A stretch of 64,000 nucleotides of DNA from Leucoraja ocellata (taxonomy: Eukaryota): assembly GCA_036785375.1 (NCBI GenBank), contig JAWMAR010000210.1:3224001-3288000 (forward strand), read 5' to 3'. A program made the translations under genes and the position numbers. Below are positions 352 through 63,286 of the stretch, one piece after another (position 1 is the stretch's first letter; each line of letters starts with the position of its first letter). Under the pieces are notes generated by a model, which ran no database searches, was not told the DNA's origin, and saw only the letters and a program-made list of their open reading frames with translations.

Positions 352-745
352 GTCTGAAGAAGGGTCTCGACCCGAAACGTCACCCATTCCTTCTCTCCAG
401 AGATGTTACCTGTCTGGCTGAGTAAATTCATTAATTTGTGTCTCACTTCTGTGTACATTGTAGCCCATTGCACAGAGTACATCATGTGTAGGAAGGAACT
501 GCAGATGCTGGTATAAACGGAAGATATATACGAAAAACTGGAGTAACTCAGCGGGTCAGGCAGCATCTCTGAAGAAAAAGAATGGGTGACGTTTCTGGTC
601 GAGACCCTTCTTCAGACTGAGAGTCACCAGAAAGGGAAACGATATATTTAAATGAAGTAGAGAGATATGGAATAGATGAATGAAATATATGCAAAAAAGT
701 AAGGACGATAAAAGAGACATTGTTAGTGTGGCTTAGGTGAAAGCA
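352..745. mobile_element. Two oppositely oriented Penelope terminal-repeat-derived short elements (352-450 +, 486-745 -)
   Basis: Family motifs ctccagagatgctgcctg..gctgagt and gtgtaggaaggaactgcagatgctgg, shared with ~20 other copies in the window. Confidence 0.8.
354..381 (+). ncRNA. Minimal hammerhead ribozyme core in a Penelope terminal-repeat copy
   Basis: CTGAAGA (354-360), A, stem II GGGT-CTCG-ACCC, GAAA (374-377), palindromic ACGT stem III, predicted GUC cleavage triplet ending at 381. Stem I is only ~2 bp. Confidence 0.7.
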
Positions 746-1235
746 TAGTACATAATATCCATTGCAAAGATACCCTTCCCCCGAGATCTGCCTGGCAATT
801 TCTTAGCTTAGCTTTCATTCCGTCCGTCTGCGCCGCCGATTTCTGAAGCTGGGCCATGGAAATATAGATCACGGCAATAAAACTTAATTGCATTTTTAAT
901 GATCAGTGCGAAGTGCGTAATGGAATTTTTAAAATGAAGCATCCGATGTCCCTTTGTCGCCGGCTGCAAACTCGATATCCGGGAGATGATTAGAATCCTC
1001 TTTCAAACCAGAGTTGTCCGACAGCGTTTATGCCGCTCGCTGTGTGAGCGTGCGCCGCATAATACTTCTCAGCAACCAGTGGTCCAAATCAAAGACAGCC
1101 CTCGTCGCTTTAAAGATCCTTCCTCGTGCTCCATCGCTCCTTCTCCCTTGATCTCAGCGGAGAGAAGACTGCGAGGCAGTTAGCGCTTCACTGCGGGATA
1201 ACGAGGATGCTCCGTGCAGACTTGCAATAAGTGAA

Positions 1236-1512
1236 GATAGACACAAAATGCTGGAGTAACTACACGAGACAGGCAGCATCTCTGGAGAGAAGGAATGGGT
1301 GATGGTTCGGGTCGAGACCAGATTAGTTAGGGACCAGGGAAACGAGAGATATATAGACGTTGGTGTGGAGAGATAAAGAACAATGAATGAAAGATATGCA
1401 AAAAAAAGTGACGATGATAAGGGAAACAGGCCATTGTAAGTGTTTGTTGGGTGAAAACGAGAAGCTTGGTCTATCTTTGGTTTAAATCAGCATCTGCAGT
1501 TCCATCCTACAC
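1236..1512. mobile_element. Penelope-derived short element with inverted terminal segment and 15-bp TSD
   Basis: Flanked by cttgcaataagtgaa (1221-1235) and cttgcaattagtgaa (1513-1527). Confidence 0.82.
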
Positions 1513-1745
1513 CTTGCAATTAGTGAAATGGACCTGATGCTCCATTTAACGCAGCACCTCTAATCCAACCCGAAGCGAAGCCGAATGTGACAACTGAACG
1601 GGCGGCAAATAACTCAATTTCCTCGTATGTAGGAAAGAAATGCAGATGCTGGTTTAAACCGAAGATAGACACGACATGCTGGAGGAACTGCCCCACTGAG
1701 TTCCTCCAGCATCTCGTGTCTATCTTCCATTTCCTTTTATATGAT

Positions 1746-2036
1746 TTTAGTTTAGTGTGGAGATGCAGCGTGGAAACAGGCCCTGCGGCCCAGCGAGTGC
1801 ATACTGACCACCGATCACCCGTTCGTACACTCTAGCTCCACACACTAGGGGCAAATTACAGAGGGCAAGTAATCTGGAAACCCGCAAGTCTTTGGCATGT
1901 GGGAAGAAACCGGAGCGCTCGGAGGAAACCCACGCGGTCACAGGGAGAACGTGCAAACTCCACACAGACAGCACCCGAGGTCATGATCGAACCCGGGTCT
2001 CTGGCGCTGTGAGGCAACAGCTCCACCAGCTGCGCC
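1746..2036 (-). mobile_element. tRNA-derived SINE (HE1 / V-SINE type)
   Basis: Reverse complement has a tRNA-like head with B box GGTTCGATC, the central gtttgcacgttctccctgtgacc domain and a CR1-like tail ending (ACTAA)n. Confidence 0.85.
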
Positions 2037-2989
2037 TATGCATACATACACCCTGAAATATTTATATTATTTTGGCCATAACTTTGTATATGCGCACACG
2101 CCGCCCAATAGATGCTACTATGCGAAATTGAAACCTCTTAGATTGCTGGTTAACAATACCCTTTTGAGTTTAATGAGTGTGATATGCGTTTACAGCAAGT
2201 TTAAAATCACTTAATGCACGTTTAATTTTGACGCTTGGGCACGTGAATCTTGTTAGACATTTCCATTGTAGCTTTATACTTGAGCAGCTTGCGGTGCGTA
2301 GGCTGACGGTCTGCAGTCACACAAGCAAACACATCAGAACTCTGCTCATGGACCTCGGCGGGTTTAGGGTTCATAATATACAGTTCCTACTAATAAAATG
2401 CTCCGATTCATAATTTCCAAGGAAGAGTTAGGATACCGGTCCAAAAAGTGGCATGAAAAACAAAGTGCCGCGTTCCCGTGAATTAGCGAAAGAGGCACTG
2501 TGCCTCGAAATAACGCGTGTAGAACTTCAAAGGCAGCTGCAGGAAAAGCTAATTCCTTCATAAAAATTAAACACATCTGTATCTCTTTATTGGTGCCGGT
2601 CTTTTATTTTCTGGAGTTGGATATGTTCCAATGTGTCAAAGTACGAAAAGGAAATCCCCGGCGATTTCATTTGACACACATGTGGTCATTGAATGCCTTG
2701 GAGCATTGAAACTGACTCTTTAAGGATGTCGGTGATTTCCACAGAGGATGCGAGTATAGATGGAGTTCTGGCGGTTCAGACATTTCAACGAGCAGGCTCT
2801 GCTTCAGACTGGCAAATAGAGCCGAAGATAGACACAAAAAGCTGGAGTAACACAGCGGGACAGGCAGCATCTCTGGAGAGAAGGAATGGGTGCGTTTCGG
2901 GTCGAGACCCTTCTTCAGACCCTTCTTCGGGACTCGAAACGTTCCTTCTCTCCAGCATGTTACGTCTATCTCCGGTTTAAACCAACATC

Positions 2990-3324
2990 TACCACACGCG
3001 GTGCCTCAGGAAGGCCGTCAGCATCCATAAAGACTCATCACACCCCTGTAACGGACTGTTTGAACTACTTCCCTCCGGCAGACGTTACAAGGCCTTCTAC
3101 GCCCGAACCTCCAGACTCAGAAACAGCTTTATTCCAAGAGCTATGGGGGGCTGAACCGGCCCTGCTGAGTGCCCCCCACCCCCCTGGACTGTCTCCCTCG
3201 GTTGGTCACGACACACAGCTTATTTATTTATTTTACTTTTCTTTTTCATCGGTTGGAGCTGCATACTAAATCTCGTTGCACTGACCTGCAATGACAATAA
3301 AAGATATTATCATTATTATTATTA
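2990..3324 (+). mobile_element. Rex1/Babar-type LINE 3' fragment (same family as 59915-60661)
   Basis: Near-identical to 60250-60480, with a matching (att)n tail. Confidence 0.85.
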
Positions 3325-3654
3325 TCTGTAGTTCCTCCCTACACACCTGGCAAAAATAGCCGCTATCTTTTCCCGAATGGCTGAGTACGCGACGTGTGGG
3401 CAATGATGCCCTTCGAAAATGAATGGCTGTGACTCGTGCCATTTGTTCACTGGGTCGTTCGATTCACAGCAACAAAAGGGTCTCACAGGCATTTCCCCTA
3501 CTTTTATTTGCATTTGCCCCACATATGACAATGGTATCACTTATTTTGACCTCTTTGGCACTTCGGATTTCGAATAAAAATTTGAAACGCTTGTTAAACA
3601 AAAGTGTAGTGACAGATTGCTACTACAAAAAGTAATAGACTTTAGACAATAGAC

Positions 3655-3870
3655 AATAGACAATAGGTGCAGGAGTAGGCCATTTGACCCTTCGAGCCAG
3701 CACCGCCATTCAATGGCTGATCATGGCTGATCATCCCCAATCAGTACCCCGTCCCTGCCTTCTCCACATATCCCCTGACTCCGCTATTTTTAAGCCCTAT
3801 CTAGCTCTCTCTTTAAAGTATCCAAAGAACCCTCCTCCACCGCCTTCTGAGGCAGAGAATTCCACAGACT
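3655..3870 (-). mobile_element. CR1/HER1 LINE 3' end
   Basis: (caataga)n tail followed by ggtgcaggagtaggccatt..cccttcgagccagcaccgccattc, the reverse complement of the CR1 3' UTR. Confidence 0.8.
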
Positions 3871-5054
3871 TTAAGAAGAGACATGGATTGGCGAGGTTTT
3901 GGATCGGCACCCTTCTCCATGCCCCAGGAGAAGGGACCCGGCCCGAAACGTGGCCCCAGTCCCCTCCACAGGATGCACAAATCCTGGTAGTATTTCTGAA
4001 CCGGTTGAGTGGTTGTACTGTCATAAGATCTTAGGTCCAATTGGCACTTCAAGGATTGAAACAACGAGTGAACTTCCGTGCTGTATTGAGATGGCTCTCT
4101 ACTGCCAGAGGTTAAACTTGTCAGAGGGCACCTTGGTCCCTGCATCAATATTGCCAATAACGGAAGAACACTGTTTCAAAGAATCTCAAAATCTGATGCT
4201 TCATATGTCAAACAGAAAGTACTGGAGTAACTCAGCGGGTCAGGCAGCATCTGTGGAAGGAATGAATAAAGTGACGTTTCGGGTCGGGATCTGTATTGAT
4301 ACTGATTGTATTCCTGCCCTCGCCCCTATCAAATGTTGCCGGCTCCAGTGCCTTCTCTGCAGTTCTCCTTTAGTTTCCGCCACACTGCAGCAATGTATTC
4401 TAAAATAACAAAAATGTAAAACGTTGAGCGACGTCCTGAAATGTTAAAGGCGCAATATAAACACAAGACTCCTTTATTATCCGCGCGTGTATTTAGTGCT
4501 TGTTGAAAGTTAACTGGATCGCCTTGATAATTTTTACGGCTGATGCTGTGTAACGCTGCACTGCTGAAACATTGACTTTCAGAAATAGCTTCAGAGCAGC
4601 ACTATTTTATTTTCTCTCCAATCCCCGTCACATGGTCGAAAATACTACATTTGACTTGGATGTTTCAAGTCTAGTCTATATGATACATTCATTGTGGTGG
4701 TTTGTGCGACCACAGCAAAAAATATGTTTTGTTTTGACGATGAATATTTCAGTTTCTACAGATGACTACTTCCAACTGTTTGCCCTTATTTATTTCAGAT
4801 TTCCAGAATCCGCAGTTTTTATTCATGCTCTTGTTTTTACAGTGTTTGGCAAATCTTTGTGTACTCCCTAGGCGAAGTATGTCGTATCACCGGGCTGTGC
4901 GCAAAATAAAGTATTTCACTGTACTTGTGGCAGTAAAGTATAATTGAATCATTGAGTCTTTTTTTTTTGTTCCCTCATACATAGACAAATGTGCCTCAAA
5001 TACACTTGGCATGGAGTGGCAAGAAAATCATACCTGATAATCATGGTTTGATGA

Positions 5055-5790
5055 CACAAGGAACTGCAGACGCTGGAATCATGGGTACAGCACAGTGCTG
5101 GAGTAACTCAACTAGTCAGGCAGCATCTGTGGAAGGAATGGATAGGCGACGTTTCGCCTCTGGGCCCTTCGTCAGAATCAGAAGAGTCCCGGACCGCAGT
5201 CGGCTCTCCATTCCTTCCGCAGATGCTGTCTAAACTGCTGAGTTACTCCAGCACTTAGTGTTTGAAGAAGGATTTCGACCCGAAACGCCAGTCGTTTTCT
5301 TCAGAGATGCTACCTGACCCGCTGAATTAAAGCAGCATCTGCAGTTCCTTCCTGCTCTTAGTGTTTTGATTTTGATTTGATGTTTTCTTCAACAATTCCC
5401 CTTTTCCTCAACAGTGAGACCAAACACTGTGTGGTCTTAAATACAAATAATTGCAAGGTCTGAATGATATAAAGTATCTGCTGCCCGATATCCCTTTTCA
5501 ATGAAATGAAATGATGAGATTCCCTTTGCTCTCTTTCGCTCGGTGCCCACACCGATGTGACGACAAGGCAAGGGCTTAAGCAGACAGGGCAGGAGCAGAT
5601 ACTGGGACCTTTCAACCATAAAAAAAAATTCTGGATGAACCCAGTGGGCCAGGCAGCATATGTGGAGGGAAATGGGCAAGCAAGGTTTCAGGTCGGGACC
5701 CTTCAATCTGAAACGACCCGAAACTTCGGCTCTCCATTTCTCTCCACAGAAGATGACTGACCCGCTGAGCTTTTCCAGCAGTTCGCTTTT
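5055..5790. mobile_element. Older fold-back Penelope-derived short elements (5055-5353, ~5620-5790)
   Basis: Inverted pairs of gctggagtaactca..gcagcatct and agatgctg..ctgagttactccagc with decayed ribozyme motifs. Confidence 0.7.
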
Positions 5791-6831
5791 TGGCATCAGG
5801 TTAACGCTGGCGTGGCTTATCGTTTAGCCGGTTCCCTTTGCACTCCCCAATGACATTGCACGGCTCTCGCCTTGGAATGGGTCTGGGCCCATGCCCTAGG
5901 GAATGTTGCCAGCGACCCCTTCCATTGTTTAATTCCTATATTACACTGTACATTTTATCGTGGAAAGAACTTTGACGCGCGAGCATGTGGGTGAACCTAA
6001 AGTATATCAATAGCGAATAGTTATCGAAGGGGTTATATTCTCCTTTGTACATTACATCCGCAATACAGCAAGAAGCAGTTACATTCTGTTGCTGTGTGGG
6101 TGAAATTAATCCCAGTCCCAGATAATGTGGGGGATAATAGGGGGAATTATTCAGTCTCTCTTTGTAAGGAAACATGTACCGACAACGGAACAATGACATT
6201 CTTACCTGCATCAGCCTAAAGCCTGTAAACACAATGAACATGGATAATATATAATGCACAAAAAAATCAGTATATTACAAACCACAATACTAGTGCACAA
6301 ACGTTCAAAATCCTTCGTGCACAGTTCTTAGTGCAACCAAGGATATTCCTTCGAAGTTCATAGTTTAGGTCAGTGTTGTATAGTGGCCAAGAGCCTGATG
6401 GTTGGTGGGAAGAAGCTGTTCTTGAATTTGGTGGTCAGGGTATTCAGACTCCTCGACCTTCTTTCTGATGGTAGGAGAGAAATGAGAGTGTGGCGAGGAT
6501 GATGTTGGTAATTGTTGAGGCAGTGCCTCTCATAGATCCCGATAGACGCGGGGGAGGTGAGTATCTGTGATGGACTGTAAACTAGACTACTTTAGGGCAG
6601 TGTAAACAGGAGAAAGGAAAAGTCGGATGCCTGGCTGCTGTGATTTCTCATTAGAATTGTGACTAATATTTAAATGTATTTCATTCTTTTCAACTCGAGT
6701 GTCATCGGAAAGGCCAGCATTTGATGCTCATCTTTAAATTCCCAGGAAATGAGTGGCTTCCTCAGTCATTTAAACGCCAACCACTATGGTGAGTGTGTAT
6801 CAAATACAGGCAGATCAGGTAAAGACGGCAG

Positions 6832-7062
6832 GGTGTGTGGGGAGGAACTGCAAATGCTGGTTTAAACCGAAGATAGACACAAAAAGCTGGAGTAACTCAG
6901 TGAGTCAGACAGCATCACTGGAGAAAAGGGATAGGTGACATTTCGGGTGGAGACCCGAAACGTCACCTATTCCTTTTCTTCCGAGATCTGAAATGTCACC
7001 TATCCCTTTTCTCCAGAGATGCTGCCTGACCTGCTGAGTTACTCCAGCTTTTTGTGTCTATC
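6832..7062. mobile_element. Fold-back Penelope-derived element with 12-bp TSD, inserted into an older SINE-like repeat (~6700-7280)
   Basis: TSD taaagacggcag (6820-6831) / taaagatggcag (7063-7074). The arms invert around gggtggagaccc at ~6950. Confidence 0.85.
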
Positions 7063-7714
7063 TAAAGATGGCAGAGTCTGGCCCCAGAAGGGATTTCATG
7101 ATAACCCAGTAGTCTTTGTGGGCATTATTACCAATGAGTAACTTTGTGTTAAATTGCACATTATTAGCGGAATGTAATTTCCACAGCTAATATGGTGGGT
7201 TTGAACTCAGATCTCTGGAGTGTTAATGATGGTCTCTAAACTGCTAATCCACCAATTTAGCAGCACACCTCCACTGTGCAATATCATGACACAGGATGTG
7301 AAAGATGCCATGATAAATGCAGGCCTGTCTTTGTTGTTTAAATATAATTCATTTTGAAGTCAATGTTAAGACGTTACCACCAACATTAATCGTGCTTGGA
7401 TCAACCTATACTTCAAAGCTATTTACAATTTTGCAGCAATCATGCAAGCCATATCTAAAATGTTGTGTGCAATTTCAGTTGTATTAAATTCCTTTGAAGT
7501 GAAGACATTCCCATTGAATTTTATGAAGATGACTGAGATCATCTTGATCAGATAATGTGCCATTGCTATAGCTGTACATATGCCAGTGTCATATGATGGC
7601 AATGGGTTTGATGTGAAGTTTGCAGTTAGTCAAGGTTTCTAGCTTGGAGCATTTTACATTTCATCCTTATACTGTTTCATGTTAATAAGGAGTCAGCTGT
7701 CCCAGAGTGTAATG

Positions 7715-10029
7715 CTGAACTCTTTTCAATTTGAGAAGGAGAAGGTTAAATCGGAAGTGTCAGTGATGCAGTTGAACAAAGAGGCTATGAAGGCATGAGG
7801 GAGGAGCTGGCCAAGGCAGACTGGAAAGGGATCCTAGCATGAATGACGGTGGAACAGCAATGGCAGGAACATCTGGGCATAATCCGGAAGACGCAGGGTC
7901 ATTTCATTCCAAAAAGGAAGAAAGATTCTAAGGGGAGTAGGAGGCAACTGTGGCTGACAAGAGAAGTTAGGGATTGAATAAAACTAAAGGAAAAGGTGTA
8001 TAACACAGCAAAGAGTAGCCGGAGGCCAGAGGCCAACAGAAGGAAACAAAACAGGCAATACGGGCTGAAAAGATGAAGTATGAGGGGAAGCTGGCCAGGA
8101 ATATAAAGAAGGACAGTAAAAGGTTATTTAGATATGTTAAGGGAAAAAGAATAGCAAAGTCAAATGTGGGTCCTTTGGAGGAAGACACGGGTGAAATTAT
8201 TATGGGGAACAAGGAAATGCCAGAAGAATTGAACAGGTACTTCAGATCTGTCTTCACTAAGGAAGACACAAACAATCTCCCAGAAGTACTGGAGGACAAA
8301 GGATATTAGGAGGTAGAGGAACTGAAAGTAATTTTCATTAGGCGAGAAATAGTATTGGGTAGGGTAACCATATAACAATTACAGCACGGAAACAGGCCAT
8401 CTCGACCCTTCTAGTCCGTGCCGAAATGGGTAATGGGACTGAAGGATAAAAAATCCACTGGGCCTGCTGGTCTGCATCCCAGGGTCCTCAGGGAGGTGGC
8501 TCTAGAAATAGTGGACGCATTGGTGATCATTTTCCAATGTTCAATACATTCAGGATCAATTCCTGTGGATTGGAGGATAGCTAATGTTATCCCACTTTTC
8601 AAGAAAGGAGCGAGAGAGAAAACGGGGAATTACAGACCAGTTAGCCTGACTTCGGTGGTGGGAAAGATGCTGGAATCAATTATTCAATATCAATATCAAT
8701 CAATCAATTAATATCAGTTTTATTCGTCACATGCACATAAAGTGCAAGTGAAATGAATTTGCCAGCAGCGGTACAATGAAAAAAAGAACACACAAAAACA
8801 CAGTAAAATTTTAACACAAACATCCATCACTGTGGTGGAAGGCACAACATTTGGCCAGTCCTCCTCCATTTTCCACCGTGGTCGGGACCTCAACCCTCCG
8901 CAGCCGCCGCTTAAAGAGATAATAATGGGGCATTTGGATAGCAGTAAAAGTATTAGTCCAAGTCAGCATGGATTTATGAAAGGAAAATCTATCCATGTAG
9001 GGTGCTGACATGGATAGAAAATTGTTTGGCAGACAGGAAGCAAAGAGTAGGAGTGAACGGGTCCTTTTCAGATTGGCAGGCAGTGGCGAGTGGAGTGCCA
9101 CAAGGCTCGGTGTTGGGGCCGCAACTGTTTACCACATATTTTAATGATTTGGAAGAGGGAATTAAGAGCAACACTAACAAGTTTGTGGATTCACAAAGCT
9201 GGGTGGCGTGCAGGTACAATCAATAACCCATGCCTGCCTTCCCCCCATATCCCTTGATTCCACCAGCCCCTAGAGCTCTATCTAACTCTCTCTTAAATCC
9301 ACCCAGGTGATTTGGCCTCCACTGCCCTCTGTGGCTGGGAATTGGCCTCCACTGCCCTCTGTGGCAGTGAAGAAAGCTAATGGAATGTTGGACTTCATAA
9401 CAAGAGGATTTCAGTAGAAGAGTAAAGAGGTTCTTCTGCAGTTGTATAGGGCTCTGGTACGACCACATCTGGAGTATTGCGTACAGTTTTGGTCTCCTAA
9501 TTTGAGGAAGGACATCCTTGTGATTGAGGCAGTGCAGCGTAGGTTCACGAGATTAATCCCTGGGATGGCGAGACTGTCATATGAGGAATGATTGAAAAGA
9601 CTAGGCTTGTATTCACTGGAGTTTTGAAGGATGAGGAAGGTCTTATAGAAATATAAAATTATAAAAGGACTTGACAGGTTAGATGCAGGAAAAATGTTCC
9701 CAATGTTGGACGAGTCCAGAACCAGGGGCCACAGTCTTAGAATAAAGGGGAGTTCATGTAGGACTGAGGTGAGGAAAATCTTTTTCACCCAGAGAGTTGT
9801 GAATTTGTGGAATTCCTGCCACAGAGGGCAGTGGAGGCCAAATCACTGGGTGGATTTAAGAGAGAGTTAGATAGAGCTCTAGGGGCTGGTGGAATCAAGG
9901 GATATGGGGGGAAGGCAGGCATGGGTTATTGATTGGGGATGATCAGCCATGATCACAATGAATGGCGGTGCTGGCTTGAAGGGCTGAATTACCTCTTTCT
10001 GCACCTATTTTCTATGTTTCTATGTTTCT
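7715..10029 (+). mobile_element. CR1-clade LINE (HER1-like) ORF2 3' portion, decayed, with nested insertions
   Basis: Peptides KRLFRYVKGKR, GLHPRVLREVA..DWRIANVIPLFKKG..GNYRPVSLTSVVGK, SGVPQGSVLGPQLF and RPHLEYCVQFWSP; 3' tail (tttctatg)n. Nested inserts at ~8366-8424, ~8685-8910 and 9217-9365. Confidence 0.92.
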
Positions 10030-12235
10030 TGGCATGACTTAGATCTCCGATTTATTTCATTTGAGGCAATCTTGAACCGACACTTGTAGCGCAACAATTC
10101 CATAGGTGTTTGAACTCTAAATTAAATTGAGCTATGTTATTTATAGTTAGAGTCAACAGGATCTGTGAGCAGGCTTGATTTAGGTTTATGAATGGTATGT
10201 ACTAAAGGATAACATACATGCAACAGATTATTCTGCCTGGAATATGCATTCCGAATCAGTCAAAAATACATTAGCAAACATTAAGATACATCAAAGTAAA
10301 GGGGTAAGAGTGGTTGCAGAAAAGCATTATTAAATCAATAGGTTTTGAAGAGACTCAGTGTGAATGCAACCAAAATAAGGATTTGGAAGAAAGAATTGCA
10401 GTGTTTCTGCACCAATAAATGAATGCAGAAGCATACTCTAGACACCTGTGCTTGAAAGGTACAAGTAGAAATGTTCACTTTGAGGGAGTTGCTTATGTAA
10501 TGCTGAACAAAGCCATGGAAGGATCCGAAGAGGAATGAGAATTTTGACATTACAGTACTGCAATGAGGAAAAATATGTCATTTTCAGGATGATATCTGTA
10601 GCATAGTGGAGAGTAGGATTAATTTAGAAATACTTAACAATGCATCAAAGCACAGGAATAGGCTCCTCAACCTATTTTATATGTGCCTGCTTGTCACTAA
10701 AACAATCAAAACACATCTTTCCATTTAAAGCCTTCAGCTTTTCTCTGTTCAAAATATTTACATGTTTTCCTTAAAATAAATAATATTTCTGTTTTCTAAA
10801 GAATTCCATATTATAACAAGCTTTTTGTAAAGGCTTTTATACTTTCTGTTTATTCTTGTAATAATCATTTTGTTTATGCCATTTTGCCATCAACTCCATA
10901 GATTTTATTCCTAGCCATTGTATGTAAAGCCTTATTTATTTAATAGAATTGTATTAAATCTTCTAATAAATTCCAGCACTCCAATTTCAGAGCCCTAAGT
11001 TTTTAAATATAAAACTGATAATGTTTGATGATATACTGTATGAATACAGGGTGGTGTTTGGAAGATTATTTATTACGTGATTAAGAAACACAATTACAGA
11101 AATGTTCTATAATTCGGAAGATGGGAAGATGTCACTAAAGCCGGGTAGGACGAATTGTGAGTAATACTTTGGAAGCATCGATTGTCATTTTTTCAGATGG
11201 ATTGGATGAAGGATTTATAATTCAACTAAGGTTAAGCAATATATTAAAGTTGTGACACAAGAGACTGCAGGTGCTGGAAGATTGACCAAAAAACAAAGTA
11301 CTGGACTAATTCATCAGGTCAGGCAACATCTGTGGAGGGAATAAGCAGTCAACGTTTTGGGCCAGGACTCTTCTTCAGACCAATGGAGATGGGGAGAGAA
11401 AGTTGGATTTTTTTTTAAAAGCTGGCAAAAGAGATATTAGGATGGGGCAGAGCCTAACAAGTGATAGGTGGGCACAGTTGGAGGGGGAGGGGTGTAGAAT
11501 GGTAGATGGATGGAGATAGCGACAAAGGCCAGAGATGAAAGTCAGTTGGTGTCATTGAGCTTGAGCGAGCATCAACAAAATAGGATGGGATCAGAATCTA
11601 AATTACAATTTATGAACAAAGCTGCAGTATTGACTTTGTTAAGGTGTTCATTATGTGTTCTTGATCTTAGCTTAATGCTGCATGGCAGTAATAATGGAGT
11701 TGAGCCCAATGAAGGATCTTGCATGCAGAAACAAATAATGACCCAATTCATGTAGCTAAAGTCACAGAAATCAAGATGCAGAATGAATTAATGTGTTCAA
11801 CGATTGAGCTAACCACGTCAGCAATGGAGAAAAATCTTTGGTATAAGATAAAACTAGAACCATGTTATAAACTATATCCATGTCAAATTGGCATTAAACA
11901 CCAAGTCTCAATAGCGTGAACAATGAAAAAGCCAGAAAACAAGGGATTTGAATACAAAACAATTGCATTGACATGGGTTGTGTAGTGGTGCGATATTTCA
12001 GGACCGCAGCAAGAGAAAAAAAAGTTAGATAGAGCAGTAATTGAGGGATTGAACATGGACATTGTATATGGTTTGAAAAGGAAAACACAATCTGAGAAAC
12101 AGAAGCAATGGGTGAGGTTTGAGCTGAGTAGGGATAATGTATTTCACAGATGCCAAGTTAGAAGATAGCTGGTGGTACTGGGTATAGTGGGCAATATGAG
12201 GTTATGGCTGGTACATGTGAGGGATATGTTCGCCA

Positions 12236-12445: not shown

Positions 12446-12799
12446 CTCTCAACACCGACAAATATGATGTACCATGGAGTTGAAATATTTGAATAATATG
12501 GGTATTGATGTATAAATATTTGAATAATATGGGTACTGTCAAGATAAGAGCAGGTCATTGGGCCCTTCAGGCCTGTTCACAGAACATAGAACAACATGGG
12601 AACAGGCCCTTTGATCTACAATAGCCAATGCAAATGAGAAGCCAAGTTAAACTAATCTCCTTCACCTGCATGTGATCCATATCTCTGAATTCCTTACATA
12701 AGTATGTGCCAATCCAAACTTATCTTACATGCCACTAGTCAACACAATTATGGTTATTGATTCACATCCATATTCTGTTTGAGTTTTCTCCCTATATAT

Positions 12800-12975
12800 A
12801 GAAACAAAGAACTGCAGATGCTGGTTTACAAAAGAAGACACAAAGTGCTGTTTAGTCCTGGACATGGATAGGTGACGTTTCAGGTTGGGACCCTTCTTCA
12901 ACCTGAAACGTCACCAGTCCATGTTCTCCAGAGATGCTGCCTGACCCACTGAGTAACTCCAGCGCTTGTGTCTTC
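12800..12975. mobile_element. Fold-back Penelope-derived element
   Basis: ggtgacgtttcaggttgggacccttcttc followed by inverted aacctgaaacgtcacc...ctccagagatgctgcc. Confidence 0.75.
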
Positions 12976-13348
12976 TTCTCCCTATGTGCCTTGATTCCAT
13001 TGGCATGAAGATATATATCTATCTCCTTGAAGATATGTAATGCCTTGGTCTCTACTACCTTCTTTGGTAGATCATTCAATGTCCACAACCCTGCGATGAA
13101 GAGATTTCACTGAATCTTCTTTATAGATGGTATACTCCATATCCTAAAGTGGTGACTCTTGGTTTGTGACACTCCAGAAATTGGAAACATTATCCTTACA
13201 TCTAGTCTGTCTAGTCCTGAACAAAAATATATCAGGGAGAAAACATGACCATTTCTCTGATGCAAAATACCAGCAAGTAAAAATGTACAATCCTTTTGAG
13301 AAGTTTGGTTTTACATTAATATTGAATTGGGATATTATAGAACAAAGT

Positions 13349-15240: not shown

Positions 15241-16739
15241 TGCACCAGGCACTGCTACTTATAGAACTAAGTAGTTAGAGATACAGTGTGGAAACAGGCC
15301 TTGAGTCCATGCCAACCACATAGTGATGTGATATTATGGCAATTAAAGAAGAAACCTCCACTTTAAAGCTGAATAAATTCTTAGAACCAGTGCACATGTG
15401 AATATTGTGCATCAGGGTACTTGATAGTGGTTCATTATGTTCTTTATGGATCTTGCATATCTTGCAAGATTTTGCATCTTATGGATTTTGCATCTTATGG
15501 ATCTTGCATATTAATGCATTTCGTTGTCTCTGTACTGTACACTGACAATGACAATTAAATTGAATCTGAATCTGAATCTGAATCTGAATCTGATATCTTC
15601 AGAGGTCCAGAATGAGCCCCATTAGAAAGTGAATTTTGTTTTATGAAGTTGCATAGAAGCTATGTTCACCTCATTCGGTTGCACACTTAGCTTTTAATGA
15701 TGTCCAAGGTTCAAATTTCTCAGCAGGACCAAAGTACCTGTTAAATTTTCCAGCACTTTGCTTTTTGCTCAAGGTTCCAGTATCTGCGGTCTCTCGTGTC
15801 TAGATACTTTGGTTACCTGTTTCAGTGCAAGCCATAGTGAGTGTTGCATCTTTAGTGGTGAGATGTGGCATTAAATCAAGGTTGTCACGAGCAGTTCAGG
15901 ACGCACGAGGTCAAGGCACTACTGGGAAAAAAAGCGCAAAAATATAGGGTGATTCATCTAATTGGCTTTGCGCGTTGTTTAAATACACCGTTGTCCAAGT
16001 AGTGTCTCAAAGGTAATTGTTCAATGAGAAAGATACTAGTTATTACTGAATGATTAAAAAAACGGAGCATTTAAAGATGAATTTTTAAATAAATAGCGCG
16101 AATTACTAATTGCAGGGCCGTATAGAAGGGCGCGTTTTAAAGGACAAGTCAGTTGATGTGGCATATAAGGACTTTCACAAAGCGGCAAGTGAGATATACT
16201 GGCAGGTAATAGAGAATTATGCAGCTGCCTCAATAAAATAAATATTTAAAAATGTGTCAAGGATAGGCATTTAAATGGAAAATTAAATTCTAAAACGCAG
16301 CATGTCATTTAATTCCTGAAAACTTGTATAAATTGTTAACAGAGGCTAAATTTGCTAAAGTTTTACTTGATTTATGTTTCTACAGAAAGCAAAGGATTTC
16401 AAAACTTTTCATCAAGGAACAAGGTTAGTTGAGCAGAAACATAGATTATGCGTGACAATGGATGGTAACTCAAAAAGTGTTCTTTGGCCCACGGTTTCTG
16501 TTTTTAGCTGATTCCAGTATGAATTATTCGCGGATATACAAAAAGACGTATTTATGAATGTTCTGTCCCCGGTACCCCGTTCCTCATTTTAAAAGGTAAT
16601 TATTTCATGTAATCCAAGTTCATCGCCCTCAGAGCTTATTGTATTGTATCCACTCGGATGTTCCTTTAATTCCCCGTACCTTTGCATTTGATAATGTAGC
16701 CGGCTATTTTATTGCGAACTTTACAATTGCCCAAAGAAT

Positions 16740-18445: not shown

Positions 18446-18550
18446 GGGGGGGGGGGGGGGGGGGGGGGGAGTCGGGGGCGGGTCGCTTCGCACCCCCACC
18501 CCCTCCCCCTCCCCCACGTGATGCTACACGACCCCTCCCGCCGCTCCAAT
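18446..18550 (+). promoter_or_regulatory. Candidate proximal promoter motif cluster
   Basis: Poly-G run 18446-18469, GC box GGGGCGGG at ~18475, E-box CACGTG at 18515-18520, CCAAT at 18546-18550. No TSS data. Confidence 0.45.
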
Positions 18551-18659
18551 CGCAGCCGAGGGATGTGTCAGAAAAAGCCGGGGCGCGCCGGGCGCCCCAT
18601 CAATAACAAGTTTCCCCGGGAGCGGGCGAACGGGGTCGGTCGGTCCTGCAGACCCACAT

Positions 18660-48910: not shown

Positions 48911-51539
48911 GTGCTCGCAGGTAGTGAAAGTGATCTTGGAGAATGGCACAACCACATCCCTGACATACTGACCAGTTGTAGTTCTATATTGAAGTGAATG
49001 TCACAGTAGAGTTGTTGAACAGTCATGACGATGGAAATGCCATTGAATGTTGAGGGTACATGGCTGGATTTTATCTTCTACGTCAGCCTCTCATTATTTG
49101 CCACATATCAGCCCATGCCTGTCTGTCGACTGGGTCACGCTGCATACAGATATGGATATTGAGGGTCTGTAAATGGAATTGTACCTTGGGCTATTATCGG
49201 TGACCATCCCTACTTCAGTCCTTGTGTAAGGACAGAAGGTCATTGATTATTCAGCTGAAGATGTTGGGCCTAAAATATTTCTGCGAGGAACTGTGATAGA
49301 CATAGAGTCATAGAGGTATACAGCGTAGAAACAGGCCATTCGGCCCAACTTGCCCACACCAACCAACATGTCTCATCTCCATCAGTCCCTGTTCTGGGGC
49401 CTGATAGAATTTTAATTTTGAATGAAAATATTTTGATCAAAATACATGCAAGTAACGAGGCATACACATCTGTACCTTGAAGCAGAGCACCTTAAACAGT
49501 TGCCATTTTTCCATCAGCATTGATTATATTGGGATATATCTTCCCTTCTGCTTAATGTTGGTGGATAAAATAGATGAATGGCTCTTTCAATCATTCTCCT
49601 GAACCAATTGTAAGAAAAGCAAAATGCTGGAGATGTTCAGGATGGCAGGCAGCACCTGTGGAAAGAGAAATAGAGTCTAAGACTCTTCATCAAGATTATT
49701 TCGGTGAGAGGTCCTTGACCAGGAACATTAACTCTATTTCCCTTTCCACTGATGCTGATTGACCTGCTGAGTGTGTCCAGCATTCTCTGTTTTTATTTCC
49801 TGTCTCCATCTTTGACAAAAAACAGTGTAGTACAGAACCCTCCTAAATAAGCAGCATCCCCATCTTATCAAGTGCGGCATAGAATTGGATATTCAGCTAA
49901 GCCATTGCCCGCAAATTGATCAATTATCAAAACTCCCTAATAATCTGTACATTAGAATGCCTCTGACATTAACAGAAGTTGAAGAGTCAATAACAATTAA
50001 TTGAATGCCAATAATGGTGAATTATTGTATTTCATCACAAAATTAAAATTGAAACAATTAAAATTATTAATGACATTTTAAGTTACGTCAATAATTTAAA
50101 AAAATGTAAATTATATGAAACTTAACTAACTTGCTTGTGATGATTCTTTCCCATTGATAAGAATGCAGATGGTCATCCTTTGCTAGGTCCAACCCAATGT
50201 CAATTCAGCAGTCGATTTCTCAGTGTAATTGGTGGGGGATTGCAGGTGGTTTATGGTCTTCTAGGAAATTACCAGTACATGCCTTGCAGCAAACTCTTTT
50301 ACATTTGGGCACATTTCTGCTCGAATCCTAATCTTCCAGAGGGAGAGTAAGTCAATTCTAGACAAAACTCCTGATATTTCTCCAAACAAGGCTGGTCATG
50401 GTTAATGTTTCAGCTTGATGAACTTTTATCAGAACTCTTTGAAGTATTACAGCAAATGAGTATTATATGAGCAAATTTGTAATGTCATTGAAATAAACAA
50501 GCAAAACGGATTATGCCACAAGCAGAACATTGGGAGGGATAAACAAAGCAATTTAGCTCCAGGTTAGAACTGCGTCTATAGGACAGAAAGCTAATCCCAC
50601 TGCAATCCTGACCCACTATTTTAACGTGCCCAAATTCAAGCTTGCACAGGCTGCTACCCCAGAGGAGCAGAGACCTAATTTCAATGGGAAAGTCATATTG
50701 TGACAATTTCTCACATCATCCAACAGTGAACGACTTAAACCTGAATGTTCTCCAACCTACGTGTGAGAACCTGCAAAATTCAATAATATGTGGTGATTTT
50801 CTTTAATATCTTTAGTATGAATAATTTCCAATGCATAGTCTCTACTGAATTTGCTGACCTCCCAACTTGGTCCTTGGTCCTATTGCAGTAAAAAAAAAGA
50901 GGACATTTTTACTCCATTTAAATTTGATAAAAAATTTAAATGTAGTCTTTTTTTTGTTATTCGTTAAGATACTACTATAGATAATACTGAGATACTACTT
51001 CCCTTGGTTTCGGCTGGAGGTCAGGTTTGGGTCGCGTACATCTTGGTAGATGAAATATTGAAAATATATTGGTAGAAATTCTTTCCAGAAAGTGAGATCC
51101 AATTAAAGCTTGATTGGTAGAGATAAAGAAATCATTGGGAATATTTGAGCAACAATCATTTGGGTGTGGTGGGGGGGGGGGGGAATTCTGTTTGGTTGGA
51201 TGGGTATATTGGCATTCTACAAATATTAACACAAGCATTTTGCAGAAGTACAATAGTATGGCATTATAGAGAAAGCAAAGTTATTTTACATCCAAAATGT
51301 TATTTTCAATGTGAAAATATAAAACAATTATGAATTTATTGCTTGCTCTTATCAATAAAGAAATACAGTACCAATGTCTTTGGGTGGGGAAAGCTGGGAT
51401 ACATTATATAGATTTACCAAGGAGGTCTGGTGGGCTGACGAGGTTTTTCTGTCTCATATCAACCTGTAACTCTATGAACATGACAATTTAATATTTTACA
51501 AGTAGATGGAAAAGCACAAATGACAGATTGATACAAATA

Positions 51540-53115: not shown

Positions 53116-54459
53116 AAGTAAAGAGGGCCATGGTACTGGAAATGATGGATCACTTATCCTTCCAATGAAGGCTACATCAAATAATTTGCAATCATCTTCA
53201 GCCAGACATGCCAAATGGACACTCCATCTCTGCTTCCTCCAGCGATCACAAACACCAGTTTGTAGCCAAGTCGATTCACTCCATGTAACTTCAAGAAGGG
53301 CTGACAGCACTGAACCAAGCAAAGGCTAAGGGAATAGACAACTTTGCAGCTGTAGTGCCGAAGACCTGTGTTCCAGAATGAGCGGTGTCTCTGGTCGAGA
53401 CATGGGAATGGATCTAAGTGGTGGCTTTTCTCACAAGCCATCATTCCAGTAGATGAATGATGAGTACATAATTGTGGAGGAAAATGGCTTAATAGCATTG
53501 TGAATTGGAAATATTTAGTAACTGGACCTATTCATCTTTTCTCTTCACAGACTAAAGAGAACTTAGTTTTGAACCTTCTACTGAGCACAAGGCCAAAAGT
53601 AGATTAGTCATCTCTCAGACCCATTAGGATGAGATCAGGCTTTTTAGAGAATAGCTCTAAATCTTCAATAGCACTAGATCTCCATAATATTATTTTTTGG
53701 CTTTGTTCCAAACTTGCCTTGCTGTTTGACTCCTCCACCAGAGAGGAACCAATGAGCTGTCAAGTGAGATCAAGGATGACTTGTGTCCCCTCCTGTCCTA
53801 ATGGTTTTTTTTAAAGTCTGAAGATTGCAATGTGGAATTTGTAGATTCTATTAGGTTCACCCGATTGATAAGAGCAATATTCCGACCCTTTGTACCATTT
53901 GGGCAGCCCAGCTTTAACCAATGCATCCTATTTACAACCAACAAAATTATTACTCCTTCCTCATTTGTTTTGGAAAACTTAATATAGCAGATGTCAAAGA
54001 TTTGTTGCACATTGAAAAATGAGATTTTGAGGCGAAGAACGTTCTACGTTTCGGCCCAAAACGTCGCCTATTTCCTTCGCTCCATAGATGCTGCTGCACC
54101 CGCTGAGTTTCTCCAGCATTTTTGTGTACCTTCTACGTTTGATTTGCCGTCTGCGTTGATCAACCTCATCGAGGGGATTACCAGGAAGATTAGTGACCCA
54201 AGAGAGAGGGTAACCAGTGACTCAGTAACTCCGTAAAATTGATAACCAGCAAAAAAAATCAAGGATAGTTCTATTCCTGATTGGAATCTACTGATCTCCA
54301 TTGAACATTGCTGTGAGTGTGGGGTGACATGTGAAATAGTATTAGCTGTGAGGCATTCTGTGATTAAATAACTTGCCAACTGTCAAACCTCAGGAAGAAT
54401 ACTGATTTAGGTAAATTGCTTGTGAAACTATACCTCAATATCACCCACGGAAATAAAGA

Positions 54460-57850: not shown

Positions 57851-59483
57851 CTATCTGCACCATTTAGCTGCTATTTGAGATACAATGCACAATTCTCTCC
57901 AAGTATTCCCTGTTTCCATTTTGTATTCACCCATATAATTCATCAAGAATTCCGTGTTCGTTTCACTCTGACCTTTTGTGTCTCCCAGATCATCTTGGTG
58001 TGCATTAAATAACTCAAATATTCTGGCAAATCTTTCATAAACGTGACTGGCTTTCCATGCTCCGTTGCCTTGAAATTGGACACATCTGAGGGTGTGTTTA
58101 AAGTGTAATTCATCAATAAAAAGTATTCTTATCCTGTTTTCAAGCACGTGTATTCATTTCTAATTGAAGTCACATCCATTGGACTGGGTTCTTCCTGTTG
58201 CTCTTCCTCGTAACGCAGGTTTCAATTCCTCTTATCTCCTGCTAGTGACAATTTTATCATAGTTTATAGCCTGTTTTAATTACTTAACAATTTGACATTG
58301 GATTAAGAAGTTATGATTAATGTTCATTGTAAATATGTTGTAACAAAGTGAAAAATGTATTATGCAAGAAGTAAAAAAAATTGAGGAGATTAAAGTGACT
58401 CCCGGGATGTTGTTTTATGTCTGTAAAAGCATACCTTATCATTTCTATTGAATAAGATCACTTATTCGGCCCTTGGTAAAGATTGATAATTATGAACCCC
58501 TTAAACTGTAAGCATGATGTTGGCACTGTCTGCAAGAAAACAGGGCCATCCACAATGGGACTAGGGGAGATTATGTGTTCGGCACGGACTAGAAGGGTCG
58601 AGATGGCCTGTTTCCGTGCTGTAATTGTTATATGGTTATATGGTTACAAGCACAGCAAGTTTAATCTGCTTAATCTGAACTATCAGCCCTACCACACATC
58701 AGTTCTGGTCGAGACCCTGCTTCAGACTGACCCGACCCGACCCGAAAGGTCACCCATCCCTTCTCTCCAAAGATGCTGCCTGTCCCGCTGAATTACTCCA
58801 GCATTTTTTGTGTAGCCCTACCACAATCATGGACCCCTTAAACTGTAAGCATGCTGTTTGCGCTCTCCACAAAGAAACGGGGCCACTTGCAAGAACAACA
58901 TGTTTGGACTGCTCCATCTGAACTGTTAGCCCTACCACCCCTGTTTACCTCCTCTTCACCGTTTTCCATAAATGCCTCAATTCCCTCCTCTCCATAGCTA
59001 AGGCTGCAAGGGGAAGATCTCTAAAAACATTGACGCACTTCCTGTGGGTCAACGCACGAAGGATACAACATCTGCCTGTCTGTAAAGCAGCTGCACAAGA
59101 GAAACCTACAGTTTTATATCGCGAGACAGTCCATATCTCATGATTTTTGCATGTTTTCAGATGCGGTGCAGCACTGTATTCAGCGCCTGTTCACCACACC
59201 AAAGATCCAATTGCTGGCAAATGCCTAAAAAAATTAACGTTTTCAACTTATCGATCATCGGTGTTATTATCATTTTGGCTCCGTATCAATTCTATTTTGG
59301 CCGATTGCACTCTTCAGAATGGCCGGATGTTTTGCTCCGATAAATATGTTTTTTAAAGGCAGGTTTTGTTGTTAAAAGTGAGGTCTTTCTGTTGAAATGC
59401 CATAATTAAAATGCTAATGATATCTTGGTCTATGTTCCAAGATCTACAAAGGGGTGGAGGTTGTGGTACATCTATTGAGATAT

Positions 59484-59700
59484 CTGTGTAGGAAGGAACT
59501 GTAGATGCTGGTTTACACCAAAGCTAGACACAAAATGCTGGAGTAACTCAGCGGGACAGGCAGCATCTCTAGAGAGAAGGAATGAATGACGTTTCGGGTC
59601 GAGACCCTTCTTCAGACTTCAGAAGAGTCTCGACCTAAAACGTCATTCATTCCTTCTATCCAGAGAGGCTGCCTGTGCTACTCCAACATTTTGTGCCTAT
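59484..59700. mobile_element. Fold-back Penelope-derived element
   Basis: Arms invert at ~59617, immediately after the ribozyme core. Confidence 0.82.
59588..59615 (-). ncRNA. Minimal hammerhead ribozyme core (perfect copy, antisense to TMEFF2)
   Basis: Reverse complement reads CTGAAGAAGGGTCTCGACCCGAAACGTC. Confidence 0.68.
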
Positions 59701-59914
59701 CTATTGTATTTAGACATTATCTGTGGTTGCTGCATTTGGCTCTGGGCACTGCAACACAGCAAGGATGTACCGGCCTTGGACAACGGCTGTGCAAATTCAA
59801 AAGCTGCTGACACTAAAGGAGTAAGTAATTAGGACAGATTTCCATGAATGTAGCAAAATAAAGACTTGTGGTATCTGAGGTAATTAGAGGAATTGGAGTA
59901 TATAGAATATACGT

Positions 59915-60661
59915 ATCTCTCCATCTACGGGGACAGTGTGGAGAGAGTGTCCAGCTTTAAGTTTCTGGGCACTCACATTTCAGAGGACCTCACATGTTCC
60001 ACCAACACCGCTGCGCTGGTCAAGAAGGCACAGCAACGGCTGTTCTTCCTGAGGACATTAAAAAAAGACTGGTCCGCCCCAACAGCTGCTGACAACGTTC
60101 TACCGCTGCACCACAGAGAGCATATTAACGTATGGCATCTCTGTGTGGTATCTCAGCTGCACGGGGGCGGAGAGGAGAGCTCTTCAGCGCGTCGTTCACA
60201 GAGCGCAGAAGATTATTGGGACACAGCTACCAGATTTGGAGGGCATCTACCTCAGGAAGGCCGTCAGCATCCATAAAGACTCCTCACACCCCTGTAACGG
60301 ACTGTTCGAACTACTTCCTTCCGGCAGACGTTACAAGGCCTTCTACGCCCGAACCTCCAGACTCAGGAACAGCTTTATTCCCAGAGTTATAGCGGCTCTG
60401 AACCGGCCCTGCTGAGTGCCCCCCACCCCCCCCCCCCCCCCCCCCCCACCCCCTGGACTGTCTCCCTCGGATGGTCACGTCACACAGACACATCTTCACT
60501 TTAGTCTGTTTTGACTATTTTACTGTTGTAATGTTCTTTTTACAATCCATGTTTCTCGGGGTATCTAACTCTAAATTTTATTAGTTATTTATGTTATGAC
60601 ATCGGATGGAAGCTGCATACCAAATGTGCAATGACAATAAAATATATTATTATTATTATTA
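59915..60661 (+). mobile_element. Rex1/Babar-type LINE 3' fragment
   Basis: Peptides SIYGDSVERVSSFKFLGTHISEDLT..VKKAQQRLFFLRTLKK and HPCNGLFELLPSGRRY..TSRLRNSFIP; tail gacaataaa..(att)n. Confidence 0.85.
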
Positions 60662-63065
60662 TAAAACTAAAGGGCATACATTAAAATTAGAGCTGGACTC
60701 TATTGGCTTGTTATTCCCTGGAGAAAACATATGTTGGATGAAAGCTGAATCAATCTTCATTAAAATATGTTGAGGTAAGGCCAAATGAAAGTGTCAAACC
60801 AAAACTTAGCTCTTTGTTAGCAATGGCAGTGTACACAGAAGCACAGTTGGTGGGTAGGGTGTTTGGTTATACTGTAGATAAACCATGATGCAATTGAATT
60901 GAGGGACAGACTCCGAAGGCTCAAAGGCCTACTCGTTTTCCTTCCTACAGCTGTCATGAACGATTATGAATAACATTTATTTTCTAATTCCTTTGTCTGT
61001 TTTTATCTTTCTACTTGAATTATGAGAGCAAAATAAAGCATATTTGCTTTCAGATGGTCTTTCAAGTTTAGAACTTCTATAAGGGTTTCTAAAATTGTCT
61101 GTCACAAATTCAGGGGATGGTAGAATCCATAAAGAAATGCTACTCCATTTTGTAATATTTTAAGTGACATTTAAAGTAATCAAAGTAAATCAAGATGCTT
61201 TTTAATGAGTCCTCATCAAACAACATGGCTTTGAAACGTTATTGAGCCTGAAGATGTGAATGATCTGATTTAATATACAGTTGAAATGACAATCTCACTT
61301 ACTGGTTCAACTCTGGAGCAATCTTAAAGCATTTAAAAAATACTGATATGCCATCAACTCCTGAAATGCAAGTCCAGCATATTCAGCTCACAAAATCAAA
61401 AGTAGTTATTATATTTTGCCAATTCAGATGATCTGGTCCTTGTTTTATTCTTAATTATTTGATCTTGCTGCGCACAAATCAGATACAACATTTTCTACAT
61501 TAAAACAGACAAGTATTCGGTATTCCGTAAGACTGCTAATTGCCTAGGATGGTCCTGAAAGAGATGTTGAAGAGATTACGAGTAGTTGATGACCAAAGGA
61601 ACTACATTTCTTGTTTTCTCTATCTACACCAATATTTTGTGCCTTACATTATAGTTCTTAATGTGTTGAGGCTGTTCACTGTCTTTCCTTCACGATGTCA
61701 CCTTTTGTTGCAACATGAGCTGTGACTTAATCACAGCCAATGTGCTTGATGAATGTGAAAGACAAATTAATGCAGTTTTTTTTTAAATGGTCCAGATATT
61801 CTGGTCATTGGTGAGCTATCCGTATACATTTATTTGATAACGGATCATTAAAAATAGGTTTAGTTATATTTTTTAAAAATATGTCAATATGATGTGATGT
61901 GATTTCTCTGGAGATTCAGAGGTCATAATACAAAAATGCAGGAACATGATTTGACAGCCAGCTAAAACCTATCAGTTTGAGAAACACTCAAAAAGCAAGC
62001 TCATTAAAAGAATCTAAAAAAAAAAAAAATAGTCAATTAAAATCATTTACCTGAAATTAATTAATTCAGAAAGATTGGCATTCTGTTGCTTAATAGATAT
62101 CCAGTTGATTAAAACTGTGATTAATTCAAAATTAATGTTTCAATCCATGACAGCCTTGAGTGAAATGCAAGCACATTTAATGGGCTGGACCAACTCAGCA
62201 TCTGTTCCTGGGCCTTGCTCTGATCTTTTTTTCCAACTTGATTAATTTTTAATATAAATATGGGAACTATTTGTTATATCACTACGGTGGTCTATTATTA
62301 TTGGAGGTGTGTGTTTGGTTAATGCAGACTTGGTTTCTGTTTTCTGAATGGATAAGATAGTTGAATTTGGTTATTGTTGAGCGGAGATGTAGGGAACCAA
62401 TACAAAAAAACTCCTACGATATACACAAAACGCATTCAGAAACTCACTGTACCACACCGCTGCAGTCAGGCAGTTGGTTATAACCAGATGCATATTGCCA
62501 TATGTATCTGGCTTCACCTTATAGGACCCTGACCTCCTTTACATGTGTGGTGGAGTTTAATCTTCCGATCTTGCATGTTTCATAGTGCTTTTTTTTAAAT
62601 TATCCGTTTTTTGGCAATCCTCACCCTTTGCTCCTGAGAAAGTCTTGACTCCCTGACAGTCCAATGGGCGTGCAATGGGCCATGCAAATAACTGTCTTTC
62701 AACTGTGATTCATAGTATAGATGTTAACAGGTCAGTTGAATCAGAGGGTTGTCAGTGACCGAAATCAAACCTGTCCGCTGTTGATTTTAATGTATGCATT
62801 TGAAATATGGATCACCAGCTCATAAAATGTGAATCGTGGCTGATTCTAGCTTTTCAAGTGAATTACGTACATATTTTAAAAAATCATTCAACGGATGTGG
62901 AACTTGCAGTTTGGGCCAACATTTAATTGCCCTTCCCTATTTGCCCTTGGTGAGATACCTTCTTGAGGTGTGTGTACCCATTGTGGGTAAACCAACAATA
63001 CGGTTTGGGAGGTATTTCCAGGATTTTGACCCAGTGACCTCGAAGTAACAGCTATATATTTCCAA

Positions 63066-63286
63066 AGATAGACACGAAAAGCTGGAGGAATGCAGCGAGT
63101 CAGGCACCATCTGTGGTGGAAAGGAAAAGGTGACGTTTCGGGTCGAGACCCTTCTTCAGACACAAAGCCTTGACCCGAAATGTCATCTATTCCTTTTCTC
63201 CAGAGATGCTGTCTGACCCGCTGATTTACTCCAGTTTGTTGTGTCTATCTTCGGTTCAAACTGTAACTGCAGTTCCTTCCTACACA
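63066..63286. mobile_element. Fold-back Penelope-derived element with 12-bp TSD
   Basis: TSD atatatttccaa at 63054-63065 and 63287-63298; arms invert at ~63160-63170. Confidence 0.87.
63132..63159 (-). ncRNA. Minimal hammerhead ribozyme core (perfect copy, antisense to TMEFF2)
   Basis: Reverse complement reads CTGAAGAAGGGTCTCGACCCGAAACGTC. Confidence 0.68.

Follow-up and report, generated by a model that had tools for sequence, protein, structure and literature searches.

Short repeats of a skate genome as the leader of an autonomous Penelope-like element with a minimal hammerhead

The 64,000-nucleotide (nt) stretch of the Leucoraja ocellata genome analysed here (assembly GCA_036785375.1, contig JAWMAR010000210.1, positions 3,224,001-3,288,000 of the forward strand; hereafter the window) is strewn with short non-coding repeats, single or head to head, some of which carry a hammerhead ribozyme motif. 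These mini-elements are the leader, or pseudo-long terminal repeat (pLTR), of an autonomous Penelope-like element (PLE), present as arms of ~100 or ~131 nt. Taken as an element, this Penelope family with its known type of minimal hammerhead is unremarkable and may already stand catalogued in Repbase or Dfam; its value lies in what it records of the PLE mechanism, in which the origin of inverted repeats and tails is unsettled, and the regular ends of the copies may record how PLEs copy themselves. Arms are numbered throughout from G352 of the window as +1, so that C3 of the hammerhead is position 354 and C17 is position 381.

Repeat arms and their parent element

It had been claimed in an earlier note on this DNA that about 20 elements, roughly one per 3 kb, form a dispersed hammerhead-bearing family. 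The family is real and denser than that, with 29 repeat loci found in the window by blastn and 46 arms at 30 loci (4,240 bases) by an nhmmer profile search; what did not hold is that the hammerhead is general, since it is intact in 5 of the 46 arms. An exact 33-mer of the arm occurs 11,534 times genome-wide (control, 0), and a 35-mer of the intact, young family gives 6,628 exact matches. In a random sample of 74 pieces, each of 10 kb and drawn from large contigs at round coordinates (740 kb), 431 arms made up 5.4% of the bases, which brings the sampled arms to 477 with those of the window; the rough extrapolation from these pieces, ~2 million arms genome-wide, may be too high because some loci are duplicated in the assembly. 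Many arms form perfect hairpins, which could be mistaken for microRNA (miRNA) precursors.

The parent element was recognised at 11 of the 20 loci fetched for long frames, in which arm, open reading frame (ORF), untranslated region (UTR) and a further arm follow one another as a partial tandem (the period is 3,985 nt in the tandem of locus L168). In intact copies, the ~131-nt arm runs on into an ORF of 1,221 amino acids (aa) encoding reverse transcriptase (RT) and a GIY-YIG endonuclease (EN), and recurs at the 3′ end. At locus L161, the first Met lies at +167 and the protein holds DKG, YLRYIDD, a CX4CxxC linker (CGRSRCNTC at aa 1100) and two Cys inside GIY-YIG; matches of the Penelope ORF to RVT_1 (1.6e-6) and GIY-YIG (0.013) both fall short of the cut-off. 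The other hallmarks of EN-containing (EN+) PLEs were likewise found, namely pLTR-forming partial tandems, inverted truncated copies and a 30-40-nt tail at one end. According to the accessible part of PMC8557442, a CX2-5CxxC linker between RT and EN is lacking in Penelope/Poseidon and common to Neptune and Nematis. Its presence therefore excludes the former pair, a Poseidon label for the parent was dropped, and the element, which by its linker would fit Neptune or Nematis, is called Neptune-type here.

Twenty-four of the 477 sampled arms lie at most 450 nt from a GIY-YIG C-terminus, through several different UTRs (2 of the 24 neighbour a linked arm), and the window itself holds a 5′-truncated copy with RT and GIY-YIG that is 88% identical to L161. 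Since the arm is thus continuous with the RT and GIY-YIG ORF, the minis are the leader/pLTR of an autonomous PLE, and the earlier proposal that they are mobilised by the Penelope RT/GIY-YIG protein was borne out. The companion proposal of a separate, non-autonomous, retrozyme-like family was not: the identity of young minis to the intact element is 97-100%, they form one length continuum with ORF-containing copies, and their joints differ by locus.

Ends and joints of the insertions and how they may arise

The young family was sampled as 80 mapped stretches covering the first 100 matches of the 35-mer. After two duplicates were dropped, 78 insertions, from <100 nt to ~4 kb long, were scored, 27 as inverted and 51 as one-strand (including L222, which is inverted and was counted there through a parsing error). 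The 3′ end lies at +96-99 (tailless) or +127-131 (tailed) in 50 of the 51 one-strand copies. Every one of the 27 inverted insertions is flanked by perfect target site duplications (TSDs); these measure 14-18 nt, partly inflated by homology with the ends, and in general about 14-16 nt. In 26 of the 27, one arm is tailed and the other tailless, 16 in one order and 10 in the other (chance of 26 mixed pairs out of 26, ~4e-10); the alignment of the 27th ends early, at +71. Their joints are unique in 22 cases, three falling on the TCAG-T-CTGA palindrome and two on stem II of the hammerhead. The 5′ ends (n=103, excluding two one-strand copies that run past the fetched DNA) reach as far as -3,803, and 34 of them lie in -3..+5 (3.8 per nt), with 14 in +6..+22 and 3 in -30..-4; near the cleavage site (+31..+36) there are 5, with no clear peak. 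For one-strand copies alone (n=49), 16 of the 5′ ends lie in -3..+5 versus 3 in the next 27 nt.

In the older sample, 67 of 105 inverted pairs are mixed, 12 alike and 26 unclassifiable, and a TSD was found in 34 of the 105 versus none of 105 controls. Older solo arms with TSDs often begin at +1..+3, and many older joints overlap at self-complementary spots. Two copies, L256 and L210, jump from the arm front into the ORF. No single master structure, that is, a common joint or a 5′ end distinct from the autonomous element, was found among the 27 young joints and 118 front-starting solos; upstream sequence is common to 6 of these solos, in two pairs whose long common flanks diverge beside the arm and in one pair in which 24 nt of the arm are duplicated. 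Among duplications of +1..+30, sought as a trace of cleavage, the upstream piece ended at 29-37 in 3 of 36 tandem pairs, which is too few. Two further observations concern the same anatomy: a 6.5-kb head-to-head insertion (L169:1853-8366) combines a tailed with a tailless arm, the cuts lying at nearly one place (-3140 and -3138), and in two pairs of independent young insertions (L216/L240 and L214/L233) the target sequences are identical or almost so, the sites probably belonging to other repeats.

The three TSDs reported earlier in the window were recovered at 1221-1235/1513-1527 (15 nt, 1 mismatch), 6820-6831/7063-7074 (12 nt, 1 mismatch) and 63054-63065/63287-63298 (12 nt, exact), and they uphold insertion as units. 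The elements that they flank are poorer hammerhead bearers than had been stated, as 1236-1512 and 6832-7062 lack CUGAnGA and 63066-63286 is intact in one arm only. TSDs cannot decide for a separate family because ORF-bearing truncated copies have them too.

It is likely that each mini is made afresh, at insertion, from the RNA of the autonomous element and is not copied from a non-autonomous master. In the mechanism proposed, the protein would make cuts ~15 nt apart in the two DNA strands, and reverse transcription would be primed at two internal start sites (~+97 and +127-131) by a single 3′ end or by both. Complementary DNA (cDNA) begun on the leader copy would finish by run-off where the RNA template has its fixed 5′ end, at the hammerhead edge, a likely start site, where the conserved YCAGTCT, which precedes most families in the UTR library, would fit an initiator. 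Two run-off cDNAs joined head to head via short homologies would give the fold-back minis, with the downstream pLTR or a template jump as the source of longer copies. In the accessible text of PMC11167929, the protein of an Anolis PLE acts on both strands, cutting and then extending them, and begins reverse transcription at two internal sites one tail apart; it is predicted to dimerise and depends on RNA past those sites, whereas its insertions do not require cleavage by the hammerhead. Genomic minis end at the start sites and would therefore lack the downstream RNA required by the lizard protein, which argues against recopying. A bolder reading, tentative and somewhat short of probable, is that PLEs have a retrovirus-like strong-stop step, in which the RNA begins at the hammerhead front, a protein dimer primes the strands at the near and far sites, and the ~two million arms are leader run-off cDNAs that made no jump to the downstream pLTR. 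If this is true, two-ended insertions would always be tailed plus tailless, and pLTRs, tails and head-to-head inversions would be explained by one mechanism.

Several points weigh against the proposed fresh synthesis and run-off. RNA reads, from short-read libraries that carry another species label, cover the arm deeply and show no pile-up of starts or ends at +1, where an RNA end could be hidden because of the library type and the millions of read-through copies. Six of the 34 front-edge ends stem from the three palindrome joints and are not independent, and the young sample, being the first 100 pattern matches, comes from contigs C1-C2. Subfamily C, an older subfamily, has no ORF-linked copy among 58 arms and could therefore be non-autonomous. 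Tandem arrays of a 66-bp unit (2-5 units, arm positions 23-89) have one common joint at unrelated loci (L052, L076, L115, L176, L221); the unit keeps GAAACGUC without CUGAnGA, and 11 such joints occur in 2 of the 74 random pieces (L076 has arrays at 330-700 and 1380-1760) and none in the window. These arrays are a candidate ribozyme-less, non-autonomous derivative of the arm.

It is nevertheless very improbable that the repeats as a whole are a non-autonomous, retrozyme-like ribozyme retroposon, transcribed, self-cleaved or circularised, and copied in trans. Such an origin would suit the very high copy number, the clean TSDs, subfamily C, the common joint of the 66-bp arrays and the derivation of retrozymes from pLTRs (stated in the accessible part of bioRxiv 10.64898/2026.07.22.740005), but it fits poorly with joints that are mostly unique and recur only at self-complementary spots, and with the length continuum with ORF copies. 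Moreover, tandem hammerhead units occur at 0 of the 30 window loci (with 2 close core-start pairs in 1.69 Mb), the motif is intact in few arms, the fold-back buries the core, and the ends of the copies do not match the cleavage site.

The edge at +1 could also have another cause under the same autonomous origin. Pyrimidine richness is common to all 30 entries of the UTR library, the majority of which close with YCA ahead of GTCTG; several families have GTAG, GTAA or GTTAG at the ORF stop and CAG at the hammerhead edge (L161:6295-6413 and the UTR library), giving intron-like 3′ UTRs. Were the UTR an intron, RT might stop at its 3′ splice site (CAG, -1..+1) or a nearby branch point, and both a Drosophila virilis intron that ends at helix I (PMC4209133) and a drop in oligo-dT read depth over the UTR agree with this. 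We consider it unlikely, as no GT..AG joint across the UTR was seen among the 15 joints listed of 19 in the reads described above, nor a spliced genomic copy among the ORF-linked arms, while the GT is missing in some families and the candidate branch A lies just 3-6 nt from the AG. Rather unlikely too, if slightly less so, is random 5′ truncation of 3′-pLTR copies, with a pile-up from annealing at the palindrome or stem II or from RT pausing at the hammerhead: the five young inverted joints at these two sites and the many self-complementary older ones would fit annealing, whereas the pile-up is also seen in one-strand copies, for which no annealing between arms is required, the monomer is predicted to fold weakly, and the edge is found beyond the structure instead of ahead of it.

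The hammerhead motif

A minimal hammerhead of Penelope type was read at 354-381, as the earlier note had it, with CUGAAGA, an extra A, GGGU-CUCG-ACCC, GAAA and CGUC, and with C17 as the predicted cleavage site. Its descriptor matches 48 times in 804 kb, with 5 of these matches in the window, versus 0 in each of five doublet shuffles, and the features of the PLE motif (CUGAnGA, the extra nt, G10.1-C11.1 stem II, GAAA, palindromic 15.2-16.2 and NUH) are intact at L161. Core, stem II and ACGU together are kept in the 5 window arms mentioned and in 45 of the 477 sampled arms. In the insertion at 63066-63286, the sole intact core sits in a ~100-bp hairpin (-121.8 kcal/mol, z -13).

The signs of maintenance that had been expected were not seen among the copies. 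Variants had been thought to keep stem II paired; paired counts equal the independent expectation (258/256.6, 252/251.0, 253/251.5, 284/283.0), so that covariation is absent, and subfamily differences there are one-sided wobbles or loop changes. Neither is the core specially conserved, its non-CpG value being 0.93 versus a median of 0.89-0.90 in the downstream arm. Both tests are weak on the parent element because copies decay neutrally. An Rfam scan returned no hammerhead family at E<=1 and gives no support either way because only miRNA-like hairpins matched. The predicted monomer fold is no better than shuffles (z -0.3 to -0.5), and two cores are predicted to cofold into a long antiparallel duplex instead of a double hammerhead, a type of fold that energy models cannot judge; a 2017 paper in RNA Biology reportedly describes cleavage by dimers. 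Selection acting on the parent element probably maintains the hammerhead, which decays in the copies and probably does not set their ends. A predicted stem between L161 arm positions 50-57 and 107-114 (AGAUGCUG with CAGCAUCU), conserved across subfamilies and enclosing the tailless start site, may be a protein-binding element.

Table 1. Penelope-derived features of the window (strand "." for insertions with arms on both strands)
Position	Strand	Feature	Details
352-455	+	Solo arm 1-104	Intact minimal hammerhead at 354-381, predicted cleavage after 381
486-742	-	Tailed arm 1-132	With ~135 nt of Penelope 3′ UTR
1236-1512	.	Inverted insertion	Tailless antisense arm with ~140 nt 3′ UTR, CUGAnGA deleted; short tailed sense arm; 15-nt TSD
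1628-1731	.	Short inverted insertion	Tailed + tailless, no hammerhead
2809-2990	.	Decayed inverted insertion	
4205-4291	-	Solo arm 12-97	
5053-5355	.	Inverted insertion	Plus second tailed arm
5595-5790	.	Decayed inverted insertion	
6832-7062	.	Inverted insertion	Joint at stem II (position 11); tailed + tailless; no CUGAnGA; 12-nt TSD
11252-11380	-	Solo tailed arm	
12796-12975	.	Inverted insertion	Tailed + tailless; 10-nt TSD
13346-15242	-	5′-truncated Neptune-type Penelope copy	RT, CX4CxxC-type linker, GIY-YIG, 112-nt 3′ UTR, hammerhead arm ending at tailless site; 88% identity to L161 over 1,903 nt
13346-13444	-	Terminal arm of that copy, 1-99	UUUG-loop subfamily; hammerhead broken at U16.1
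13557-15032	-	491-aa open frame of that copy	RT core to GIY-YIG C-terminus; RVT_1 E 1.4e-5, fails Pfam cut-off
22526-22676	.	Inverted insertion	Short sense arm 2-33 with intact core
24589-24752	-	Tailed arm	Intact core; ~36 nt UTR
29477-29576	+	Solo tailless arm	11-nt flanking repeat
30614-30782	.	Inverted insertion	Tailless + tailed
31209-31274	+	Solo arm 32-97	
31966-32034	+	Arm fragment 1-69	
33610-33775	-	Tailless arm	With Penelope 3′ UTR
38944-39041	+	Solo tailless arm	Start at position 3
39728-39795	+	Solo arm 35-102	
42008-42097	+	Tailless arm	Penelope 3′ UTR upstream
42844-42898	-	Arm fragment	
43493-43721	.	Inverted insertion	Tailless + tailed; joint at hammerhead front
43813-43934	+	Solo tailed arm	
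49616-49797	.	Old inverted insertion	
54034-54135	+	Solo tailless arm	
58703-58815	.	Short inverted insertion	12-nt TSD
59486-59730	.	Inverted insertion	Antisense arm with intact core
63066-63286	.	Inverted insertion	Tailless antisense arm (intact core) + tailed sense arm; exact 12-nt TSD; one long hairpin
63598-63664	+	Solo arm 34-100	14-nt TSD

Beyond these features, the window has two small exons, EGF-like and Kazal, at 20781-21203, downstream of a GC-rich stretch (18000-20000). They resemble a TMEFF/tomoregulin gene, and if they belong to one, many arms would be intronic. By eye, we also presume a short interspersed element (SINE)-like element at ~1750-2030, a piece with AATAGAC repeats at its end at ~3650-3870 and a piece of a CR1-like long interspersed element (LINE) at ~7700-8000. 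Outside the window, at L051:7404-8702, an integrase-like open frame of an LTR-type element, so labelled by eye, adjoins a Penelope copy.

Comparison with known systems

Hammerheads in pLTRs, tails and inverted insertions are already published. The first were described, mostly on truncated single copies, in PMC4209133, and the minimal hammerhead defined there shares with the skate motif the core C3-A9, an extra nt before G10.1, the G10.1-C11.1 pair, palindromic 15.2-16.2 and NUH; single dispersed motifs from truncated PLEs predominate in both, and opposite-strand pairs were noted there too. The skate motif differs by its stem II of 4 bp and a helix I of just 2 bp, and its ~48 intact motifs per 0.8 Mb are far above the 4,000-9,000 per genome of coelacanth and Xenopus. 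The literature search, outside which lay Repbase, Dfam, subscription papers and supplements, returned no paper on Penelope hammerheads in cartilaginous fish, on two-ended priming as the basis of the tailed-plus-tailless rule, or on 5′ ends piling up at the front edge. Non-LTR retrozymes, in the accessible portions of PMC7229834 and bioRxiv 10.64898/2026.07.22.740005, are likewise short, non-coding and pLTR-related, with a type I hammerhead, but they form head-to-tail arrays with a complete ribozyme per unit and circular RNAs, whereas the skate repeats are solo or head to head and mostly without an intact core.

The parent element resembles the EN+ Neptune-type PLEs, as portrayed in the accessible parts of Craig et al. 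(2021, PMC8557442) and Arkhipova et al. (2013, PMC3846280), in its single ORF with RT and C-terminal GIY-YIG, its DKG and CX2-5CxxC linker, and in its partial tandems, inverted 5′-truncated copy, 30-40-nt one-end tail and TSDs. In contrast to them, the skate copies are dominated by ORF-less two-arm and one-arm forms, the leader is non-coding up to the first Met, and a sharp 5′ pile-up at the hammerhead edge is not met in those parts of the descriptions. Self-priming on antisense RNA is the proposal given there (PMC3846280) for PLE inverted repeats and tails, and later steps of PLE insertion are left open in the accessible text of PMC11167929. In the skate, young intact copies of 1,221 aa and thousands of near-identical, exact-ended insertions make the tailed/tailless rule and the stop at +1 countable genome-wide.

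The Poseidon element PAc of Anolis carolinensis (Frangieh et al. 2024, PMC11167929, accessible text) belongs to another clade, without the linker Zn finger, its ORF begins in stem II, and its two start sites are not connected there with the two arms of inverted insertions. What it has in common with the skate element are the two internal RT starts one tail apart, both downstream of the hammerhead; the cutting and extension of both strands, with hammerhead cleavage dispensable, is counted as shared.

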